This document shows positions 1,663 through 45,549 of a stretch of 64,000 nucleotides of DNA, piece after piece; within the stretch, counting starts at the first letter, position 1; the number at the start of each line of letters is the position of its first letter. Below the pieces are notes generated by a model that was given only the letters and a program-made list of their open reading frames with translations, made no database searches and was not told the origin of the DNA. The DNA is from Deltaproteobacteria bacterium (GTDB lineage Bacteria > Desulfobacterota_D > UBA1144 > Nemesobacterales > JAJCZQ01). The stretch lies in contig JAJCZQ010000049.1 in NCBI GenBank assembly GCA_029262335.1, forward strand, positions 13,731-77,730. Reading direction: 5' to 3'. Position numbers and translations under genes: made by a program.

Positions 1663-1800
1663 GGAAAGCAAAAAAACAAGCTTCCAACTTAATTCAAATT
1701 TATATTTCGAGAAAGTTAAAATAATCCTCTAAAGAAGGAAAGCAAAACATCGAGCTTCCAACCTTAATTTAAATTTATATTTCGAGAGAGTTTAAATTAA
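1663..1800. repeat. Tandem direct repeat of about 62 bp in two copies (1663-1724 and 1737-1800), separated by about 12 bp, between apgM and tRNA-Leu
   Basis: Seen directly. Copy 1 is ggaaagcaaaaaaacaagcttccaacttaattcaaatttatatttcgagaaagttaaaataa. Copy 2 is ggaaagcaaaacatcgagcttccaaccttaatttaaatttatatttcgagagagtttaaattaa. Only a few mismatches. Confidence 0.8.
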
Positions 1801-1868: not shown

Positions 1869-1951
1869 GCCGAAGTGGTGGAATTGGTAGACACGCTATC
1901 TTGAGGGGGTAGTGCCTTACGGGCGTGGGAGTTCGAGTCTCCCCTTCGGCA
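1869..1951 (+). tRNA. tRNA-Leu, anticodon GAG, long variable arm
   Basis: Acceptor stem gccgaag/cttcggc pairs perfectly. D-arm is GTGGAATTGGTAGAC. Anticodon stem ctatc/ggtag with loop ttGAGgg. Long variable arm tgccttacgggcgtg. T-arm gggag-ttcgagt-ctccc. Discriminator A. CCA is not encoded. Confidence 0.9.
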
Positions 1952-1973: not shown

Positions 1974-2002
1974 TTGAAATTACAGTCAAAAAATATTATT
2001 AT
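1974..2002 (+). promoter_or_regulatory. Putative sigma-70 promoter of secreted-protein paralog 1 (TTGAAA-N17-TATTAT)
   Basis: -35 TTGAAA at 1974-1979, 17-nt spacer, -10 TATTAT at 1997-2002, about 45 nt before the ATG. A near-identical arrangement sits upstream of paralog 2. Confidence 0.4.
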
Positions 2003-2046
2003 CTAACCCAATTAAACGGTTAAGTAGAATAAGGGAGGATTTATCC

Positions 2047-3747
2047 ATGAAATTAAGGCAATTAATTGTTTTAAGTATTTTTTCATTTTTATTTTTAACT
2101 CCGGTTGCATCTTTTTCAGGCATGCCGACTGACCTGCCCATACCTGAAACAGATTCAGCCAAATATGTACAGGTATCATTTTTTGACCTTCGTGAAAGAG
2201 AGAGTTACGTGCAGGTTACAAATACAAGTGCATCATCCAAGATACTGCATGTACAGGTATTTGATGTTAGCAATGACTGTGGCGAAAATAATTTTTTTGA
2301 TGATTATACAGGTAATGACACCCATGTTTACAATATGAGGAACATACAGACAAATGACGGCGATGATGCAGGCCTTGTGCTTCCCGATGACGCATACGGA
2401 ATAGTTGTAATATATTCAGTAGTGAGCGAAGGCGGCCCGATTGATGAGAGTGAAGAGCTTGTAGGGAATTTCAGAATTCTTGATGATCTTGGTTATGAAT
2501 ATCGCACAAATTCACAGGCGTTTTTCCTTAACGCAGACCCAATGCCTTTAAATACAGAGAGATTTTTTACTTTTAACTTTAACACTACAGCCGGAACTAG
2601 CTTTGCAGATGTTGTAGGTGTAAACATGGTTTTCGATGAAGGTTCAAATGAATTTTCAGTTAACCCTCTTGACGTAGGATTAACGCTGGATGTTGATCTG
2701 TTCAATAATGCAGAAGTTCCATTTTCCTGCCGCGACGTAGCATTTGTATGTGCAAATGATGAAAGCCCTGTAATAAATTTTATTCTGGAATCCGCAGGAG
2801 TTGCAGTTGCTGCTTTTGAATATGGTATCAACAATGCTCTGCCTCATAGTAAAGGCGGTGAAGTATTATGTTCCGGAAATATAGTTGGTGAAGGACATGC
2901 AAAACTTACAATAGAATCAGTATCAACAAGTAATCTTGTGTCTGCTTTTTTTGTAGGACTGAATAACGGAAACGGAAGAGGCAGTATGGACTCTCTTTGG
3001 GACCCATCAGACAATGATTTCCTTAGAGACATTTTGATAGGTGATTCTACAGTAATAGAGAGTGAAGACCTCATATTTCCTGTAACACTGACTACTCCTT
3101 CTGATGAAGAAGTTGAGGTTGATTTTGGAGTAAATGATATAGATACTTCGGGAATAGCTGATTTTGATCTGTCAATGGCTCAATGTAGTCTGGATAATAT
3201 TCTTTTCTCAGATTGTTCAACACTTTTATTTCCACCCGGCGTAACAATGGCCTATTATTTGATTCCTACTGTTGATGATGACATATTTGAACCTGATGAA
3301 GACCTTGAACTATTTGTTGATTCAGTGCTGTCAGGGGAGATAAGGAACACAATTGAAGGTACAGGTACAATACAGGATGACATGATGCCGCCTGACCTTA
3401 CAATTCTAGATTCTACAATTGTTGAGAGCGGCGGAAGTATGCTTATTGATCTTGAGCTGTCAGGGCCGTCATCAGAACCAATTACAGTAGAACTTCTGAC
3501 TGCAGACGGAACACCAGATCCAGCTACAGAAGATTCTGATTACACAACTCAGGATGGTGTAATGGTTACATTTACGCCTATGACTACAATGCAAAGTATA
3601 ATGATTCCAATTATTGATGATGGTGTTTGTCCTGCGGAACCTTTAAATGAATTTTTTATTATTGACGTAGCAAATATAATAACTGGTCAGCTTGGCACAA
3701 TTACACCTGGAACAGGAACTATTGTTGCTCCTGCATGTATAATGTAA
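2047..3747 (+). CDS. Secreted acidic protein, paralog family member 1: signal peptide, conserved N-terminal module of unknown function, C-terminal Calx-beta-like repeats
   Basis: 566 aa, N-terminal signal peptide, very D/E-rich. N-terminal region is nearly identical to ORF 3946..5691 (PIPETDSAKYVQVSFFDLRERESYVQVTNTSASSK...). C-terminal segments (TVDDDIFEPDEDLELFV, IPIIDDGV...EFFII...GTGTI) fit the Calx-beta pattern (I.DD...E.DE.F.V.L). RBS gggagg upstream. Confidence 0.8.
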   Translation: MKLRQLIVLSIFSFLFLTPVASFSGMPTDLPIPETDSAKYVQVSFFDLRERESYVQVTNTSASSKILHVQVFDVSNDCGENNFFDDYTGNDTHVYNMRNIQTNDGDDAGLVLPDDAYGIVVIYSVVSEGGPIDESEELVGNFRILDDLGYEYRTNSQAFFLNADPMPLNTERFFTFNFNTTAGTSFADVVGVNMVFDEGSNEFSVNPLDVGLTLDVDLFNNAEVPFSCRDVAFVCANDESPVINFILESAGVAVAAFEYGINNALPHSKGGEVLCSGNIVGEGHAKLTIESVSTSNLVSAFFVGLNNGNGRGSMDSLWDPSDNDFLRDILIGDSTVIESEDLIFPVTLTTPSDEEVEVDFGVNDIDTSGIADFDLSMAQCSLDNILFSDCSTLLFPPGVTMAYYLIPTVDDDIFEPDEDLELFVDSVLSGEIRNTIEGTGTIQDDMMPPDLTILDSTIVESGGSMLIDLELSGPSSEPITVELLTADGTPDPATEDSDYTTQDGVMVTFTPMTTMQSIMIPIIDDGVCPAEPLNEFFIIDVANIITGQLGTITPGTGTIVAPACIM

Positions 3748-3778
3748 ATTATTTTGAACTTTAACTAAGTATAAATAA

Positions 3779-3815
3779 AACCCTCTATAAATATTATTTT
3801 TATGGAGGGTTTTTC
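3779..3815 (+). terminator. Rho-independent terminator after paralog 1
   Basis: Hairpin ccctctat...atggaggg followed by TTTTT (3810-3815). Confidence 0.6.
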
Positions 3816-3870
3816 ATTTCTGATATTTACCCATTATTTCTAATTGTTTAATGATTAAATCTCTGTTTCC

Positions 3871-3899
3871 TTGAATTAGTAATCAAAAAATACTATTAT
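3871..3899 (+). promoter_or_regulatory. Putative sigma-70 promoter of paralog 2 (TTGAAT-N17-TATTAT)
   Basis: -35 TTGAAT at 3871-3876, 17-nt spacer, -10 TATTAT at 3894-3899. Spacer sequence aatcaaaaaatac parallels the paralog 1 promoter. Confidence 0.4.
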
Positions 3900-3945
3900 A
3901 AGCTTTATTAAGCTCTGATTTGTTTAAATAGGGAGGACTTTATCC

Positions 3946-5691
3946 ATGAATTCAAGAATAATACTATTATTAGGAATCGTAATATCTTTATTAATCTCAT
4001 TGCCATTTACCACATATGCAGGAATGCCTGATTTTGATGACGACGACCTTCCGATACCGGAAACGGATTCAGCCAAGTATGTACAGGTATCTTTCTTTGA
4101 CCTTAGAGAAAGAGAAAGTTATGTACAGGTAACAAATACAAGTGCATCATCAAAAGTCCTGCACGTTCAGGTCTTTGATGTAAATAATGATTGTAACGAA
4201 AATAATTTTTTTGATGATTATACAGGTAATGACACCCATGTTTATAACATGAGGGACATCCTGACCAACGATGGTGACGATGCAGGCCTTGTGCTTCCTG
4301 ACGGTGCATATGGAATAGTTGTAATATATTCTGTCGTAAGTGAAGGCGGCCCGATAGATACGGGACAGAACCTGATAGGAAATTTCAGGATTATGGATGA
4401 CCTTGGTTATGAGTACAGGACCAATTCACAGGCATTCTTCCAGGACATTGACCCCGAACCGCAAAATTCACAAAGATTTTTTACTTTTAATTTTAATTCT
4501 ACAGCCGGTACAAGCTTTGCAGATGTTGTAGGTGTCAACATGGTTTTTGATAATGGTTCAAATGAGTTTGTAGTAAACCCGCTTGATGTTGGACTCACCC
4601 TGGATGTTGATTTATTTAATAATGATGAAGTTCCTTTTTCCTGCCGCGACGTGGCATTTGTATGTGCAAATGATGAAAGCCCTGTGATAGATTCTATTCT
4701 TGAAAATGCAGGAGTTGCAGTTGCGGCTTTTGAATATGGAATAAACAATGCACTTCCTCACAGTAAAGGCGGAGAGGTTCTTTGCTCGGGAAATATTGTG
4801 GATGAAGGGCATGCCAGGCTTACTATTGAATCAGTATCCAACAGTGAACTTGTCTCTGCATTTTTTGTAGGACTGAATAATGGGAACGGAAGAGGTAGTA
4901 TGGACTCTCTCTGGGACCCTTTTGATACTGACTTTGTAAGGGACCTTCTTATAGGTGATTCAACTGTTATTGAAAGTGAGAGCCTTATATTTCCTGTAAC
5001 TATTACTACACCTTCTGATGAATCACTCTTTGTTACTCTCGATCTTATAGACGGTTCTGCTACAAGTACGGATGATTATAATGAAATGTCTACCCGGTGC
5101 AGCCTTGAACCAGATATGAACTTTGAACCCTGCGGTGCAATTGAATTTCCACCAGGTGTAACAATGGCTTATTACCTTGTTCCTACCAGAATCGATGATA
5201 TCTTTGAACCTGATGAAGACCTCACGGTTGAATTTGTCAGTGCAACAGGTGATATAAGAAATGCTAATGTTGGTACCGGAATAATTATGGATGACCTGAT
5301 GCCGCCTGATATAACAATTATGGACTCAACTGTAATGGCAAGTGAAACATTTATGTTTGAAATGCAGCTCAGCCATCCTTCATCAGAGCCTATAACTATT
5401 GCACTTAGAACAGAAGATGGTCAGGATAACCCTACTTCAACTGAAGCAACTGATTGCAACGATCCTGGCGCAGACTATCTATCTGCAGACGGGTCGGAGG
5501 TGACATTTCCTGCTGGTGATACGGTATTAGTAATGCCGTTTCCTGTTCAAACTTGTGAAAATAACGTTTCTTGTGACAGTGCTTTTTCAGAAGACCTTAT
5601 ACTTGATGCCGATCAATTGTCAGGACAAATAGGTACAATTACACCTGGAACAGGAACAATAAATAATAATGCTGTTTGTATGGGCCCATGA
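3946..5691 (+). CDS. Secreted acidic protein, paralog family member 2 (same architecture as 2047..3747)
   Basis: 581 aa, signal peptide. Long blocks identical to paralog 1 (ESYVQVTNTSASSK, NNFFDDYTGNDTHVYNMR, GNGRGSMDSLWDP, FPPGVTMAYYL, DDIFEPDEDL). C-terminal GTITPGTGTI conserved. Middle and C-terminal regions are more diverged. Confidence 0.8.
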   Translation: MNSRIILLLGIVISLLISLPFTTYAGMPDFDDDDLPIPETDSAKYVQVSFFDLRERESYVQVTNTSASSKVLHVQVFDVNNDCNENNFFDDYTGNDTHVYNMRDILTNDGDDAGLVLPDGAYGIVVIYSVVSEGGPIDTGQNLIGNFRIMDDLGYEYRTNSQAFFQDIDPEPQNSQRFFTFNFNSTAGTSFADVVGVNMVFDNGSNEFVVNPLDVGLTLDVDLFNNDEVPFSCRDVAFVCANDESPVIDSILENAGVAVAAFEYGINNALPHSKGGEVLCSGNIVDEGHARLTIESVSNSELVSAFFVGLNNGNGRGSMDSLWDPFDTDFVRDLLIGDSTVIESESLIFPVTITTPSDESLFVTLDLIDGSATSTDDYNEMSTRCSLEPDMNFEPCGAIEFPPGVTMAYYLVPTRIDDIFEPDEDLTVEFVSATGDIRNANVGTGIIMDDLMPPDITIMDSTVMASETFMFEMQLSHPSSEPITIALRTEDGQDNPTSTEATDCNDPGADYLSADGSEVTFPAGDTVLVMPFPVQTCENNVSCDSAFSEDLILDADQLSGQIGTITPGTGTINNNAVCMGP

Positions 5692-5721
5692 GTATCAAAT
5701 TATAATTAATTTAACTTTTAA

Positions 5722-5755
5722 ACCCCTGTTTATTGTTATAAACAGGGGTTTTTAT
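5722..5755. terminator. Bidirectional rho-independent terminator between convergent genes
   Basis: Perfect hairpin acccctgtttat-tgtt-ataaacaggggt followed by TTTTT on the + strand and preceded by A-run (T-run on the - strand). Confidence 0.7.
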
Positions 5756-5970
5756 TTACTATTACTCTTGAATACTTCTTTGTCTACTTCCAGATATAAA
5801 GTTGCAGAGTTATGATCCGGGTAAAGCTCTAAATAGTACCTTTGACCTTTAACTACTTTTGTATTTTCATCCGAACAAAATGCCTTAAGCCTGCTTACTT
5901 TCTTTTCGAACTGTTCCGGTTTATGAAAATTTAATTTATTTACTGTTTTTAACTCTATAATTTTTTTCAT
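5752..5970 (-). CDS. Small hypothetical protein (72 aa)
   Basis: ORF only. No recognisable motif, weak RBS. Sits next to the terminator and an AT-rich region. Confidence 0.3.
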   Translation of the reverse strand: MKKIIELKTVNKLNFHKPEQFEKKVSRLKAFCSDENTKVVKGQRYYLELYPDHNSATLYLEVDKEVFKSNSK

Positions 5971-8380: not shown

Positions 8381-9142
8381 ATGAGTACTCCGTTAATAGT
8401 AGTTATAGCAATTGTCGGACTGATTATTTTTTCAGGTGTAAAGGTCCTTTATGAATATGAAAGAGGTGTAATATTCAGACTTGGACGGCTCTCAGGAACA
8501 AAGGGGCCGGGTTTTAAGTGGATTATACCAGGCATAGATAAGCTTGTTAAAATAAGCCTTAGAATAATAACAATGGATGTTCCTCCGCAGGATGTTATTA
8601 CAAAAGATAATGTTTCTGTTAAGGTGAATGCAGTTGTTTATTTTAAAGTAGTTGAACCTAAAAAGGCAGTTGTTGAGGTAGAAAACTATCTCTATGCCAC
8701 ATCGCAGCTTGCCCAGACGACTCTTAGAAGTGTTCTTGGCCAGGTTGAGCTTGATGACCTGCTGGCAGAAAGGGATAAGCTTAACATTAAACTACAGGAC
8801 GTACTTGATAAACAAACCGATGCCTGGGGAATTAAAGTTACACTTGTAGAAGTAAAATATGTAGACCTGCCGCAGGACATGCAAAAAGCCATGGCCCGTC
8901 AGGCAGAAGCAGAAAGAGAAAGAAGGGCAAAGGTTATTGCGGCAGAAGGTGAATACCAGGCTTCAACAAAGCTGTCAGAAGCTTCAGCTATTTTATCGGA
9001 AAACCCAATGGCACTTCAGCTAAGGTATCTGCAGACAATGATTGAAATGTCTTCTGATAAGAGCTCTACAATTGTATTGCCCTTACCAATTGACCTTTTA
9101 ACACCGTTTATAGATAAATATAAAAACAGCCTTAAATCATAA
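8381..9142 (+). CDS. SPFH/band-7 (stomatin-like) protein
   Basis: N-terminal TM helix followed by an SPFH domain pattern (RLGRL...KGPGF..IIP..D......D.....KDN..V.V.AVVYF.V.....A). Coiled-coil A/E/R-rich C-terminus. Confidence 0.85.
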
Positions 9143-29359: not shown

Positions 29360-31291
29360 ATGGCGACTTCAAAAATAATTGGAATTGATCTGGGAACTAC
29401 GAATTCTGTTGTTGCTATTGTAGAAGGCGGAGAACCAAAGATTATAATAAACGAGGAAGGAAACAGGACCACCCCTTCGGTAGTTGCATTTGCCAAGGAC
29501 AAGGAGATCCTTGTTGGCGATTCTGCTAAAAGGCAGGCTGTAGCTAATCCTGAAAATACAATCTTTTCCAATAAGAGAATGATTGGCAGAAGGTTTGAAG
29601 AGGTTAAAGACGAAGTAGGCAGTCTGCCTTACAAGATTGTAAAATCTTCTAATGACGATGCATGGTTTGAAGTCGAAGGCGAACAGTATTCACCTCCGCA
29701 GATTTCTTCCAACATTTTAATGAAATTAAAAAAAGCTGCTGAAGACTATATTGGTACTTCGGTAAATGAAGCGGTTATTACTGTTCCGGCTTACTTCAAT
29801 GACAGCCAGAGGCAGGCAACAAAAGATTCCGGTAAAATAGCCGGCCTTGAAGTTAAAAGGATTATTAACGAACCTACGGCAGCAGCGCTTGCTTATGGTT
29901 TTGATAAAAAAAGTGAAGGAATTATTGCCGTTTATGACCTCGGCGGCGGTACTTTTGATATATCGATACTTGAAGTAGGGGACAATGTAATTGAAGTAAA
30001 ATCAACCAATGGTGATACTCACCTTGGGGGAGATGACTTCGACAAAAAAATTATTGATTACATAATCGAAGAATTTAAAAAAGATTCAGGCATTGATCTT
30101 AGTAACGATAAAATGGCCCAGCAGAGGCTGAGGGAAGCAGCAGAGAAAGCCAAGATTGAGCTTTCAAGTAAACTTGAAACAGAGATCAATCTTCCATTTA
30201 TAACTGCAGATGCATCTGGTCCAAAGCATTTAGTATTAAAAATAACCCGTTCGAAATTTGAACAGATTGTAGACCCTCTTGTTAAGGGTACACTTGAACC
30301 CTGCAAGCAGGCACTTAAAGATGCCGGATTAAAAGCTGGTGACATTTCCGAAATTATTCTTGTTGGTGGATCTACGAGGACCCCGCTTGTGCAGAAAGTT
30401 GTTTCTGAATTTTTTGGAAAAGAACCTCACAAGGGAATTAATCCTGATGAAGTTGTTGCAATGGGTGCAGCGATTCAGGGTGCGGTACTTGGAGGCGAAG
30501 TAAGAGACGTATTACTTCTTGACGTAACCCCTTTATCTCTTGGTATAGAAACACTTGGCGGCATCATGACTCCAATTATTACAAGAAATACAACAATACC
30601 AACAAAAAAGAGCCAGGTATTTACTACTGCGGAAGACAACCAGACCTCAGTAGAAATACATGTGCTGCAGGGTGAAAGGCAGATGGCTGCTGATAACAGA
30701 ACACTTGCAAGGTTTATACTGGACGGTATACCGCCTGCTGCCAGGGGAGTGCCCCAAGTAGAGGTCACTTTTGATACTGATGCCGACGGTATTATGCACG
30801 TTTCTGCAAAGGACATGGCATCGCAAAAAGAACAGAAAATTAAAGTAGAAGCATCAAGCGGCCTTTCTAAAGAAGAAATTGATTCTATGGTTGATGAGGC
30901 TGAAGCCAAGTCAGAAGAAGATAAACAACGTCATGAAGCCGTAGAGAAAAAGAACAAACTTGATGAACTCATTTACAGGACCGATAAGAGTTTTAAAGAG
31001 CTTGAAGAAAAACTTTCTGATGAAGAGAAAAAAGAACTTCAGGATGCCCTTGAAACAGGAAGAGAAGCTGTGAAATCAGACGATATTGCACAGATAGATG
31101 CTGCTACAGAAAAGATAACACAGGCTTCGCATAAACTTGCTGAAATCATGTATAAAGAGCAGCAGGAACAGGCAACAGAAGATGGTGCCCAGCAGCCCGA
31201 AGGAGAACAACCAGAAGGCGAAACAGAATCTTCGGAAGAAGATGACAAAAGCGATGATGATGTAATCGATGCTGAATTTACAGAAAAATAA
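29360..31291 (+). CDS. dnaK: Chaperone DnaK (Hsp70), copy 1
   Basis: [18 protein letters not shown], and acidic C-terminal tail ending DAEFTEK. 643 aa. Only 24 nt downstream of rpoH. Confidence 0.9.
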
Positions 31292-34579: not shown

Positions 34580-36463
34580 TTGGCAATAGTAGGAATTGAT
34601 TTAGGTACAACAAACTCATGTATTTCCATCATTGAACAGAATGAACCGGTAGTTATTCCAAATGAGGAAGGAAGCCGGACTTCGCCTTCAGTTGTTGCAT
34701 TTACCGAAGACAACAGCCGTATTGCAGGCGCTGTAGCAAAGAGGCAGGCTTTGGTAAACCCTTTGAATACAGTTTTTGCCGTTAAGAGGCTTATCGGCAG
34801 AAAAATTGATTCCGGTGAAGTAAAAAAATCTATAGAAATATCCCCATTTACAATTGTTTCCAACAACAACGGAGATGCCTGGGTAGAGGTAAACGGCAAC
34901 AGGTACAGCCCGCAGGAAATCTCATCTAACATCCTTATGAAGATGAAAAATATTGCGGAGGAATATCTGGGGTACGATGTTAATGAAGCAGTAATTACAG
35001 TACCGGCACATTTTAATGATATTCAGCGCCAGGCTACAAAAGATGCGGGTAAGATTGCCGGCCTTGATGTAAAAAGAATCATAAACGAACCTACGGCTGC
35101 GGCACTGGCCTATGGAATGGAGAACAAGGAGAACCAGAAGGTTGCAGTGTTTGACCTTGGAGGCGGTACTTTCGATTTTACCATACTTGAGATTGCAAAC
35201 GGCGTATTTGATGTAAAAGCCACAAGTGGTGACACCTATCTGGGCGGTGATGATTTTGACCAGAGAATAATTGAACATGTTGTAGAAGTCTTTAAAAATG
35301 AAAACAATATAGACCTGAAAGAAGACAAAATGGCACTCCAGAGAATAAGGGAAGCCTGCGAGAAAGCCAAACATGAACTGTCTTCACTCGAAGAAACCAA
35401 TATAAATCTTCCATTTATCGCGGTTGATTCCACGGGGCCAAAACATTTAAACCTTAAACTCTCGAGGCCGGAACTTGAAAAACTGGTTGATGACCTTATT
35501 ACAAGGCTCGCTTATCCATGTGAGCAGGCAATGAGTGATGCAGGCATGACGGCTGATGAGATTGATGAGATAGTACTGGTCGGTGGTATGACGAGGATGC
35601 CTAAAGTAAGGGAAAAGGTAAAACAGATTTTTGGCAGGGAAGCACAGTCGAGAATAAACCCCGAAGAAGTAGTTGCAATCGGGGCTGCAATACAGGGTGG
35701 TGTACTTGAAGGTAAAGTAGAAGATGTTCTTCTGCTTGATGTTGTTCCTCTATCCCTTGGTATCGAAACCAAAGGTGAACTGTTTACAAAAATTATTGAA
35801 AGAAATACTACTATTCCAACAAAAAAGAGCCAGATATTTACAACAGCTTATGATAACCAGGATTTTGTAAGCATTCATATACTGCAGGGTGAACGTGAGA
35901 TGGTAGGTGACAATATATCTCTTGCCAAGTTCAATATGGTGGATATTCCTCTTGCACCCAAAGGTGTGCCCCAGATAGAAGTCTCATATGAAGTGGATGC
36001 AGACGGTATACTCCATGTTTCTGCTCATGACCTTGGTACTGACAATATACAGGAAATTGTTGTTGAAAATTCAAGCGGGCTTAATGATGAAGAAATTGAT
36101 TCAATTATAAATCAGAGTCAGAAAAGTAAGGAAGATGACAAAAATAAAAAAGAATACGCACTGTTAAAGAATGAAGCTGAAGGGTTGATATATTCGGTTA
36201 ATAAAACTTTAAGTTCACATGGTGATAAGATTGATTCTGAGACAGATGTAAGGATACGTGAAGAGCTAAAAACACTTGAAGATGAATTAAACGGGGATGA
36301 TTACAACTCTCTAAATATAGCTTTAAAATCTTTACAGGATGTATCTTATAAATTTGCCCAGACGATATATTCTTCTAAGGGCAATGACACAAAGACTGAA
36401 AAACCTGCTGCTGAAGCACTTTCTTCTGATGATACTGATGACGAAGAAAATGTATCCGAGTAA
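34580..36463 (+). CDS. dnaK: Chaperone DnaK (Hsp70), copy 2
   Basis: [18 protein letters not shown], full substrate-binding domain. 627 aa. TTG start. Sits in the hrcA-grpE-dnaK-dnaJ arrangement. Confidence 0.85.
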
Positions 36464-44519: not shown

Positions 44520-45549
44520 ATGTTTAGAGGGTTAAAGTTTTTAATTATTTTTACATTGTTCTTCACAGTATTTTTTGTGGATACCAAGGATTCATTTGCT
44601 GGGGGATTTACTATAGTTCGACCGCAAACTGACAACGCTTCATACATTTTGGTATCAATCTTTGATCTAAGAAACCGTGAAAGCTATGTGCAGGTAACTA
44701 ATACTAGTGATAGTGCTCTTACAACACATGTCCAGGTATTCGCAGTTAATGATAACTGCCGTGAGAATGATTTTTTTGATACATATACCGGAAATGATAC
44801 TCATGTGTACAACATGCGTGATATATTAACAAATGACGGTAACCCATCGGGTGTTGTTCTTAATGGTGGCGAATACGGTATGGTTGTTGTTACAGCAACT
44901 TTAAATGGCTTGATTAATGATGTTTTGCAGGATTTGGTAGGAAATTTCAGAATAGTTGACGAAGCAGGTTATGAATACCGTACCAATTCTTCTGGAACAA
45001 ACAGGGTATTTATTGGTAATGATAATCCATTTGGAACTACAACTCTTTCAACTGGTAATTTTAATTCCGAAGGTGGAACAAACCAGAGTGATACGTACAC
45101 TGTTGTTTTAAGTGAAACACAGAATGGTTCTGTGGAAGTAACAGCAAATCCTTTGGAAACATTTATTGTATCCGATGTTGATATTTATGACCTTAATGAA
45201 GTCCCATTTTCATGTCCCAATACAATATTTGCTTGTGTAGATCAAAACAGTGCAGTACTTGAAGAACTACTTGAAGAGGCTGCTGAAATCTCACCAGGTG
45301 CAAGTATTGCTACTTTTGATTCTGGATTAAATGAAGTCTATCCTAGCAGTAAGGGTGCTCCTCTTGTTTGTCCAAATAACGTTGTTAAGTAATGGTTTTT
45401 CAAGAGCAAACACTGTTGGATTTAGTTTTACAGGTCCTTTTGATGGATTCTATATTGCTGCATTTGTAGGAATCAATAATGGTAACGGTAGGGGAAGTAT
45501 GGACCAGATATGGCTGGAGAATTTTTTACTTGCAACTCCATTAGGTTAA
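44520..45549 (+). pseudogene. Third member of the secreted acidic protein family: frameshifted near 45385-45392 and truncated, lacking the C-terminal Calx-beta-like region
   Basis: ORF 44520..45392 carries the family N-terminal module (ESYVQVTNTSDS, HVQVF, NDFFDTYTGNDTHVYNMRDILTNDGN, GNFRIVDEAGYEYRTNS). The continuation (AAFVGINNGNGRGSMDQIW) is in a different frame in ORF 45331..45549, and then stops about 270 codons early compared with the intact copies. Confidence 0.5.

Follow-up and report, generated by a model that had tools for sequence, protein, structure and literature searches.

What are the two large proteins encoded directly behind tRNA-Leu(GAG) in this window (the whole stretch of DNA that was analyzed, 64,000 nucleotides), and does their position next to a tRNA gene mean anything? 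The original prediction described ORF A and ORF B as adjacent tandem paralogs that share long identical blocks. The quoted blocks are indeed present in both proteins, which are 68% identical over their full length (BLASTP). The duplication was also said to include the promoter and the ribosome-binding site, which agrees with what lies upstream of each gene (Table 1): matching -35/-10-like sites, a 30-nt promoter-region block that is 80% identical between the two copies (repeat family D15), and the ribosome-binding context GGGAGGA..TTTATCCATG, which is present twice, once per gene. ORF A begins 95 nt after the tRNA, on the same strand, and a terminator scan found no terminator-like site between them.

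Table 1. Features of the tRNA-Leu/ORF A/ORF B locus and of a third family member in the window
Feature	Position	Strand	Details
tRNA-Leu(GAG)	1869..1951	+	ARAGORN, Rfam
ORF A promoter-like site	1974..2002	+	TTGAAA-17-TATTAT
ORF A Shine-Dalgarno	2033-2039	+	GGGAGGA
ORF A	2047..3747	+	566 aa
ORF A signal peptide, aa 1-25	2047..2121	+	MKLRQLIVLSIFSFLFLTPVASFSG, without lipobox cysteine; read from sequence
ORF A N-terminal module, aa 26-325	2122..3021	+	two beta-sandwiches (predicted)
ORF A tail, two Calx-beta repeats (~aa 335-447, 448-566)	3049..3744	+	PF03160 at 3.5e-10
Intrinsic-terminator-like hairpin 3' of ORF A	3777..3813	+	terminator scan
ORF B promoter-like site	3871..3899	+	TTGAAT-17-TATTAT
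ORF B Shine-Dalgarno	3931-3937	+	GGGAGGA
ORF B	3946..5691	+	581 aa
ORF B signal peptide, aa 1-26	within 3946..5691	+	
ORF B N-terminal module, ~aa 27-331	within 3946..5691	+	89% identical to that of ORF A
ORF B tail, two Calx-beta-like repeats, ~aa 340-581	within 3946..5691	+	
Intrinsic-terminator-like hairpin 3' of ORF B	5720..5751	+	terminator scan
Third family member, stand-alone type, frameshifted	44520..45392 plus 45331..45549	+	~342 aa if repaired

Both proteins have Sec-type N-termini, as the original prediction had it. (We called the signal peptides by eye and with a simple heuristic.) N-termini like that of ORF A are found in 120 of 128 family members. Neither signal peptide contains a cysteine, so there is no lipobox. 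A and B end directly behind the last Calx-beta strand, and we found no T9SS, PEP-CTERM, LPXTG or other sorting domain in either protein (no Pfam or NCBIfam match at E<=1), as expected, nor any signal for crossing the outer membrane. The proteins were also thought to have an extreme content of Asp and Glu. They are very acidic (pI ~4.05), but Asp and Glu are only moderately raised, at 16.6-16.9% vs. 13.9% in the window. The acidity is chiefly due to the very low content of Lys and Arg (2.8-3.1%, vs. a window median of 11.1%).

We then examined the C-terminal tails, for which Calx-beta-like repeats had been predicted. In ORF A, PF03160 matches two stretches (40.4 bits; the gathering cut-off is 27). 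In ORF B the score is below the cut-off (22.8 bits), but because B is homologous to A throughout, we read its tail as Calx-beta too. The first and second C-terminal repeats match each other (E=2e-6). Both proteins also match the calcium-binding domains (CBD) of the Na/Ca exchanger in the PDB, with the tail of A aligned to CBD1-CBD2. As in the exchanger, the repeats are in tandem, and the first keeps the DDDxFExDE segment that is predicted to bind Ca2+: the acidic segments DDDIFEPDEDLE (repeat 1 of A) and IDDIFEPDEDL (B) align with DDDVFEEDE of the exchanger. Unlike in known Calx-beta proteins, the repeats sit behind an N-terminal head that is unrelated to them, the secreted protein as a whole is short, and the acidic motif is partly lost in repeat 2 and in ORF B.

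The front half of each protein defines an undescribed, highly conserved protein family. The N-terminal module of about 300 residues had not been recognized from the sequence, and we too found no named sequence family that matches it. Its sole structural relative, TM1070/ASRT, corresponds to only a third of it and lacks an established function, so the original prediction is not refuted on its own criterion of a match to a well-characterised family with known function. In the predicted structure, the first half of the module (~aa 40-160 of A) is an eight-strand beta-sandwich with the topology of TM1070, and the second half is a sandwich like those of carbohydrate-binding modules (CBMs). The two halves are mutually dependent in structure prediction, and no duplication inside the module was detected (hhalign probability 0.2). 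About 70 positions are near-invariant, and these are rich in His, Glu, Asp, Arg, Tyr, and Asn; nearly every Arg is invariant in this otherwise Lys/Arg-poor protein. There are four conserved cysteines (78, 228, 235, and 275 in ORF A), and six surface segments differ between paralogs.

How close is the first half to the ASRAH superfamily? (This superfamily corresponds to Pfam's ASRT, PF07100, and includes TM1070 from Thermotoga, PDB 1nc7, and the Anabaena sensory rhodopsin transducer, PDB 2ii7.) PF07100 (ASRT/DUF1362) had no match at E<=10 in any of 89 family members or in A or B, and a profile search of PDB sequences did not recover 1nc7 or 2ii7. ASRAH domains have a conserved aromatic residue (Trp) that opens strand 1 and an Asn that closes strand 2 (PMC2739507). 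At the places expected for these from the sequence, our family has, as candidate equivalents, F/F-D-L (with W in P0154, a distant relative) and Q-x-T-N. The ligand-contacting signature SHEshChhN of the ASRT-like subfamily is absent; the corresponding strand reads R-E-S-[FY]-[VI]-Q-x-T-N. The His and Cys of that signature are also replaced in other ASRAH subfamilies (PMC2739507). Secreted versions of the ASRAH domain occur as dyads or tetrads. As for CBMs and lectin-like sandwiches (the alginate-binding CBM 8zqf, the Ruminococcus CBM 5aot, galectins, and GOLD domains), the likeness goes no further than that among many sandwiches that are unrelated. The module has no match to a CBM family profile and is far more conserved than CBMs usually are, and most family members are stand-alone proteins rather than being appended to enzymes as CBMs are.

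A and B belong to a much larger family of paralogs that is defined by the module, usually as a stand-alone protein; the Calx-beta tail, and not the module, is the unusual add-on. Dozens of copies are present in one group of uncultured marine bacteria, often directly behind tRNA genes. Database searches bear out the suggestion that these proteins are lineage-specific. (A scan of genome contigs turned up one 3.3-kb contig, with 34.6% GC, that is binned as Hyphomicrobiales, but it is probably mis-binned.) Of the accessions, SDBT01 alone turns up in the literature, in work on deep-sea and marine sediment metagenomes. Other fusion partners in the family include ice-binding-like, LenF-like, and fibre-chaperone domains, among them a Peptidase_S74 trimeric-fibre chaperone on one relative. 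A transmembrane helix with an RRR tail is found only in P0154. Family genes have strong ribosome-binding and extended -10-like sites, and GGAGGAT is present in 38 of 122 upstream regions (vs. 8 of 868 controls). We found no conserved operon partner or export genes near family members, and no carbohydrate-active genes were consistently nearby. By size, the leading clusters of neighbors belong to generic families (ABC ATPases, SDRs, sigma-54 activators, MFS transporters, and pentapeptide lipoproteins). We also rejected an origin in phages or plasmids: there are no relatives in 2.9 million viral contigs or in 72,556 plasmids.

The pair itself is old. Between the N-terminal modules of A and B, dS is ~1.0 and dN/dS is 0.075, which rules out recent gene conversion as the source of the identical blocks; rather, these blocks reflect purifying selection. 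Values of dN/dS for the module are 0.03-0.07. ORF A has no exact match in the assembly index but a near-identical ortholog, P0128. In the related locus L007, A and B have separate orthologs, so the duplication is older than that species split. (The C-terminal tail of A is 75% identical to that of its L007 ortholog and that of B is 61% identical to its own, vs. 51% between A and B.) The junction with the tRNA gene is kept in L007, L024, and L080, and the pair's locus is syntenic in four genomes, with dS up to saturation.

What might these proteins do? Tentatively, we favor the view that A and B are Sec-exported extracytoplasmic ligand-binding proteins (lectin- or adhesin-like), which we consider possible, if short of probable. 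What we have established is how the genes are built, that they are paralogs with export-type N-termini, that their tails are homologous to Calx-beta, that the fold resembles that of ASRAH domains, how large the family is, that it is under purifying selection, and that it has extracellular fusion partners; the location, the ligand, and the role in binding are inferred. The Sec pathway would export A and B, which would act outside the cytoplasm, beyond the inner membrane. The conserved two-sandwich module would be a head that binds rather than catalyzes. Its first half would have the fold of ASRAH (TM1070/ASRT) small-molecule or sugar-binding domains, with the CBM-like sandwich packed on it, and the two Calx-beta repeats would form a Ca2+-stiffened acidic stalk or spacer. 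The organism would keep dozens of paralogous heads on one rigid scaffold, which has the ~70 near-invariant residues. The six variable surface segments suggest a repertoire for related, possibly anionic, ligands such as polysaccharides.

Several observations weigh against binding. Even the nearest relatives by structure lack a proven function, carbohydrate-active genes are not consistently nearby, and the number of invariant positions and the housekeeping-like dN/dS point to more constraint than is shown by most families of lectins or CBMs, and would fit an enzyme or an obligate assembly just as well. As no outer-membrane-crossing signal was found, the proteins may also be periplasmic. If the module is an enzyme, acting perhaps on a polysaccharide or another extracellular polymer, then the active site might lie in the cleft between the sandwiches, as in two-sandwich enzymes of the PNGase F type, and the paralogs would differ in substrate specificity. 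The residue types at the invariant positions, values of dN/dS that are typical for enzymes, and the mutual dependence of the two halves are all consistent with this, which we still consider unlikely. An assembly could be a cell-surface coat or fibre (S-layer-like or a fibre tip), in which paralogs provide surface variation and the invariant positions are assembly interfaces. The high copy number, the strong expression signals, the very acidic and Lys/Arg-poor composition, and the Peptidase_S74 domain and membrane anchor on one relative each would fit, and Calx-beta repeats are known from surface proteins. But A, B, and most members lack any anchoring, SLH, sortase, or secretion-system signal, and there are no conserved partner or export genes nearby; we view a coat or fibre as rather improbable.

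Alternatively, the proteins might stay in the periplasm and serve there as sensors of small molecules or as regulators, akin to what has been proposed for intracellular ASRT proteins. The ASRAH fold is tied to small-molecule sensing, the only signal we found is of the Sec type, and the organism is a diderm (related loci encode Pal, MltA, and LolB-like lipoproteins; NCBIfam matches of lipoproteins do not point to a particular lineage). However, the fusion partners are typical of surface or secreted proteins, and a regulator would not usually come in dozens of paralogs that lack sensor or transport genes as partners. A periplasmic sensor seems very unlikely. If the module is instead a binding head, then this lineage spends about one gene per 20-100 kb on a single undescribed recognition scaffold. 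This would be an unstudied way to capture marine polymers or hosts, or to adhere to them, and would add a large, experimentally testable extracellular branch to the poorly understood ASRAH fold. The family also lends itself well to a new Pfam entry, structure determination, and ligand screening.

The position behind a tRNA gene, which was part of the original prediction, is a recurring trait of the family and not a coincidence. A full tRNA or a 3' fragment of tRNA-Met lies within 250 bp upstream of 20 of 124 family genes but only 19 of 873 control ORFs (Fisher p=1.7e-9, or p=4.6e-6 once related cases are collapsed). The related contig L002 has six family genes downstream of an intact tRNA-Met. 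The core ACCCGTCGCCACCA precedes five of these, exactly copied in four cases and degenerate in the fifth. A tyrosine integrase is encoded 2.3 kb away. This resembles integron cassette arrays, or cis-mobilisable elements that have accreted at tRNA genes, in that single genes downstream of an intact tRNA-Met are parted by 3' core repeats near a tyrosine recombinase. Unlike in integron arrays, each family gene has its own promoter and terminator, and we did not identify an attC-like site or an IntI-type integrase.

Single-gene cassettes might thus have spread by site-specific recombination at tRNA 3' ends, with A and B as an old, now fixed product. (This would explain the arrangement, not the biochemical role.) But the features of the array are absent from the window's locus, and the tRNA linkage amounts to a statistical association rather than a demonstrated mechanism. 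In the window, the 3' end of tRNA-Leu is present only once (last 17 nt, up to 3 mismatches), there is no integrase near the pair, whose neighbors are housekeeping genes, and GC at the locus is the same as in its surroundings. The deep synteny of the pair also argues against mobility, and the integrase of L002 is on the 5' side of the tRNA. In the L002 array the ~320-nt spacers are conserved, and Rfam recognizes only the tRNA there; the spacer element also turns up at sites without family genes and is perhaps an interspersed repeat of a general kind. Nor is mobility needed to explain the same-strand junctions: co-transcription with tRNAs, serving high expression, would suffice. We consider spread by recombination improbable. 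The combined idea of a cassette-like repertoire of secreted binding proteins, with single genes and their own promoters accreted at tRNA 3' ends and tRNA-Met core repeats left between them, is decidedly doubtful. If it were true, one lineage would have gained a large set of recognition heads for use outside the cell, open to diversification and built on one ultra-conserved scaffold, by an integron-like route to a surface or secreted binding repertoire. The recurrent tRNA linkage makes the family a concrete system in which to study the multiplication and expression of single-gene paralogs.

Finally, the pair had been proposed as the main accessory-looking content of the window. Its neighbors are indeed housekeeping genes, but A and B are not the window's only family genes. 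(No rRNA genes are present in the window or in the related loci.) A third, divergent copy is recognized by hmmsearch in two parts, with 44520-45392 scoring 328 bits and 45331-45549 scoring 31 bits, and has a 1-nt frameshift near 45388-45392. It also has replacements at several invariant residues, with SCPN for SCR[DN] and FDSGLN..PSSKGAPLVCPNN for FEYGIN..PHSKGGELLCPGN, and is probably a pseudogene or contains an assembly error.

The N-terminal module of ORF A and ORF B, the tandem paralogs behind tRNA-Leu, belongs by sequence to no family described so far, and "new family" is the label that suits it best. Neither a profile built from 89 members nor a scan of each member at E <= 10 found a match in Pfam, NCBIfam, or PDB sequences, which agrees with the original prediction that the module (about 300 aa; residues 26-325 of ORF A) lies outside any named domain. 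It is not peculiar to ORF A and ORF B: 1,111 proteins match it at E <= 0.01 in a word-indexed search. Among the matches listed, the top ones share about 50% identity with the module across 91-99% of its length; they are unnamed, mostly 320-360 aa, and have no Pfam domains. The typical architecture is a signal peptide plus the module. The module is also found fused to an alpha/beta hydrolase, DUF4215 Cys-rich repeats, a YVTN propeller, DUF1554/LenF-like domains with acidic double-disulfide repeats, an Ice_binding-like domain, a Peptidase_S74 fibre chaperone, or a transmembrane helix plus an RRR tail. These partners (that is, those other than Calx-beta) are all of extracellular character.

We compared the module to the ASRAH superfamily, which is defined by TM1070 and ASRT. 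(Binding of sugars or small molecules by ASRAH proteins is a prediction only; the secreted members come as dyads or tetrads; PMC2739507.) The N-terminal half of the module has the ASRAH fold, but it matches neither the profile nor the signature: in place of ASRT's ligand signature SHEshChhN, the module has a nearly invariant RES[FY][VI]QxTN. Within the secreted beta-sandwich binding modules, it is best called a new variant.

Coordinates of the features discussed (in the window, unless locus L002 is named)
Feature	Position	Strand	Remarks
Tandem repeat, about 75 bp, copy 1	1663-1722		between apgM stop codon and tRNA-Leu
Tandem repeat, about 75 bp, copy 2	1737-1797		between apgM stop codon and tRNA-Leu
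tRNA-Leu(GAG)	1869..1951		ends 95 nt before ORF A start
Promoter-like site, ORF A	1974-2002		TTGAAA-17-TATTAT
ORF A	2047..3747	+	566 aa
Terminator-like hairpin after ORF A	3777-3813
Promoter-like site, ORF B	3871-3899		TTGAAT-17-TATTAT
ORF B	3946..5691	same as ORF A	581 aa
Terminator-like hairpin after ORF B	5720-5751
72-aa ORF	5752-5970	-	directly 3' of ORF B; no family match
SPFH/Band-7 gene	8381-9142		6504-7265 in L080
DnaK paralog	29360-31291		full-length
DnaK paralog	34580-36463		full-length; same strand as the other
Third family member, stand-alone type	44520..45549		just after metH; 1-nt frameshift near 45388-45392
Tyrosine integrase	L002 331-1365		near the array
tRNA-Met(CAT) and six family genes	L002 3716-14917		tRNA intact

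As predicted, ORF A and ORF B share long identical blocks, and identity across the whole of the two proteins is 68%. Each has its own promoter-like site, Shine-Dalgarno sequence (GGGAGGA, 7 nt 5' of the ATG in both), and terminator-like hairpin, so the duplicated unit was a complete monocistronic gene; the claim that the duplication includes the promoter and ribosome-binding site also stands. Both N-termini look like the predicted signal peptides (Sec-type, without a lipobox cysteine). The proteins are acidic (pI about 4.05), but this is mostly because lysine and arginine are very rare (2.8-3.1%, versus a window median of 11.1%) and not because of the extreme D/E content that was claimed (16.6-16.9%, versus 13.9%). 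The GC content of the two genes does not differ from that of the remaining window. The 72-aa ORF next to ORF B is kept in the close relative L080 (88% amino acid identity, dN/dS of 0.25), so it is most likely a genuine small gene.

Among 120 distinct family sequences, 70 of the approximately 300 module positions are near-invariant, including four cysteines and almost every arginine. Variation is limited to six segments (residues 59-66, 122-139, 156-175, 180-185, 195-216, and 285-302 of ORF A). Between the modules of ORF A and ORF B, dS is about 1.0 and dN/dS is 0.075, so the identical blocks reflect strong purifying selection; on the same values, we rejected recent conversion as their source. 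Between orthologs, dN/dS for the module is 0.03-0.05. By region, dN/dS is 0.015-0.056 for the scaffold, 0.07-0.15 for the variable segments, and 0.16-0.30 for the tail.

The tail belongs to Calx-beta, in line with the prediction: Pfam's match to ORF A is above the cut-off (40.4 bits, in two stretches) and the match to ORF B is below it. In NCBIfam and PDB searches, the CBD domains of Na+/Ca2+ exchangers were the sole matches to this part. The two halves of the tail, of about 115 aa each, align to each other (E = 2e-6), and repeat 1 retains an acidic segment, DDDIFEPDEDLE, whose counterpart in the alignment is the Ca2+-binding loop of the exchanger. We found no T9SS, PEP-CTERM, LPXTG, or other sorting domain in either protein with Pfam or NCBIfam, again as predicted. 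(In P0154, a distant relative of 806 aa, there are two divergent modules, and behind each comes a hydrophobic helix with an RRR-rich tail (…LVPAFVIGFRVMRRR…). This looks like a sorting or anchor signal of the C-terminal kind that has not been recognised before, and no NCBIfam model matches it.)

The Calx-beta tail is restricted to orthologs of the A/B locus, which is syntenic in L007, L024, and L080 (home of the near-identical ortholog P0128). ORF A and ORF B are orthologous to L7a and L7b, their L007 counterparts: tail identity is 75% for A and L7a, 61% for B and L7b, and 51% for A and B, so the duplication predates the split of these genomes. Relative to L080, dS is 0.12-0.13 for flanking genes, 0.10-0.15 for the module, and 0.40-0.62 for the tail, which is the mosaic, fast-changing portion of these proteins. 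The SPFH/Band-7 gene shows the same kind of excess (dS of 0.86, versus 0.12-0.13 for its neighbours), which points to recombination with a divergent allele.

The proteins form a compact family with a narrow distribution. When 1.84 billion cluster representatives were searched exhaustively with HMMER, only 388 clusters matched at E <= 1e-3, and 185,579 GTDB species genomes gave one match, which bears out the prediction of lineage specificity. That match (L001, JAJFHN010000093.1) is on a 3.3-kb contig with 34.6% GC that is binned as Hyphomicrobiales, probably by mistake; the GTDB species genome collection seems to lack the lineage to which the family belongs. Viral contigs and plasmids gave no matches. 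A metagenome scan gave 242 matches, on contigs of 30-42% GC, concentrated in about ten assemblies; one of these, SDBT01, appears in papers about deep-sea and marine sediment metagenomes. Copy numbers can be high. In the window and the related loci together, an HMM scan found 153 family ORFs. The 1.2-Mb contig Ga0315338_1000010 has 11 copies and the 296-kb contig Ga0315338_1000155 has 13; one small assembly (CAJHZB01) has about 27 copies; and the longest tandem arrays have six genes (L002).

The pair does lie directly behind tRNA-Leu, as originally described. Across the family, 20 of 124 genes have a complete tRNA or a 3' fragment of tRNA-Met (mostly 14-40 nt) on their own strand no more than 250 bp upstream, versus 19 of 873 control ORFs (about 8-fold enrichment; p = 1.7e-9, or 4.6e-6 with related cases collapsed). 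The complete tRNAs, 22-149 bp 5' of the ATG on the same strand, are Leu-GAG (the window, L007, and L024), Leu-CAA (L016, L035, and L059), Arg-CCG (L026 and L032), and Ser-TGA (L029). Further family genes converge on a tRNA-Glu or tRNA-Gly gene, with 23-150 bp between it and their 3' ends. In the L002 array, a conserved spacer of about 320 nt, with internal inverted repeats and no match in Rfam, precedes five of the six genes; it ends with an exact tRNA-Met 3' core (ACCCGTCGCCACCA) in four cases and a degenerate copy in the fifth. The tRNA-Met core was also recorded for L017, L019, L042, L043, L066, and L073. Given the enrichment and this array, we consider a position behind a tRNA to be a trait of the family. 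Candidate causes are integrase-mediated accretion or co-expression with tRNAs. At the A/B locus itself, we looked for a second tRNA-Leu 3' copy and for an integrase and found neither.

This is an undescribed family that is strikingly conserved, expanded, and tRNA-linked; what we say of its function we infer. The best-supported reading, which we hold tentatively, is of a secreted head, comprising ASRAH-like and CBM-like sandwiches, that would bind a ligand, with the Calx-beta tail as a Ca2+-binding stalk under it. The heads of ORF A and ORF B would be part of a large repertoire whose members differ in their surface segments. The invariant arginines, in an acidic protein that is otherwise poor in lysine and arginine, hint that the ligand may be anionic.

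It is doubtful that the module is instead an enzyme, with an active site between its domains, and we think it rather improbable that the proteins are subunits of a self-assembling surface structure. A role as a periplasmic sensor is quite unlikely. Mobility could explain the arrangement of the genes and would be compatible with any of these functions; we give it a small chance as well. We found no recurrent neighbour gene family beside the module.

The third family member in the window is altered at several family-invariant positions; it is probably either a pseudogene or the product of an error in the assembly. The pair had been described as the main accessory content amid housekeeping genes. 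The setting is indeed core metabolism (apgM, NfeD/SPFH, Opp, aconitase, Icd, SdhA, two DnaK, MetH, pyruvate carboxylase, and the PDH complex), but this third copy is in the window too. The two DnaK paralogs are 3 kb apart, and both score as DnaK equivalog. Upstream of tRNA-Leu, the copies of the tandem direct repeat are 77-91% identical; each opens with a GGAAAGC...GCTTCC hairpin and holds a promoter-like TTCAAA-18-TAAAAT, so the repeat may be a duplicated unit of terminator and tRNA promoter.
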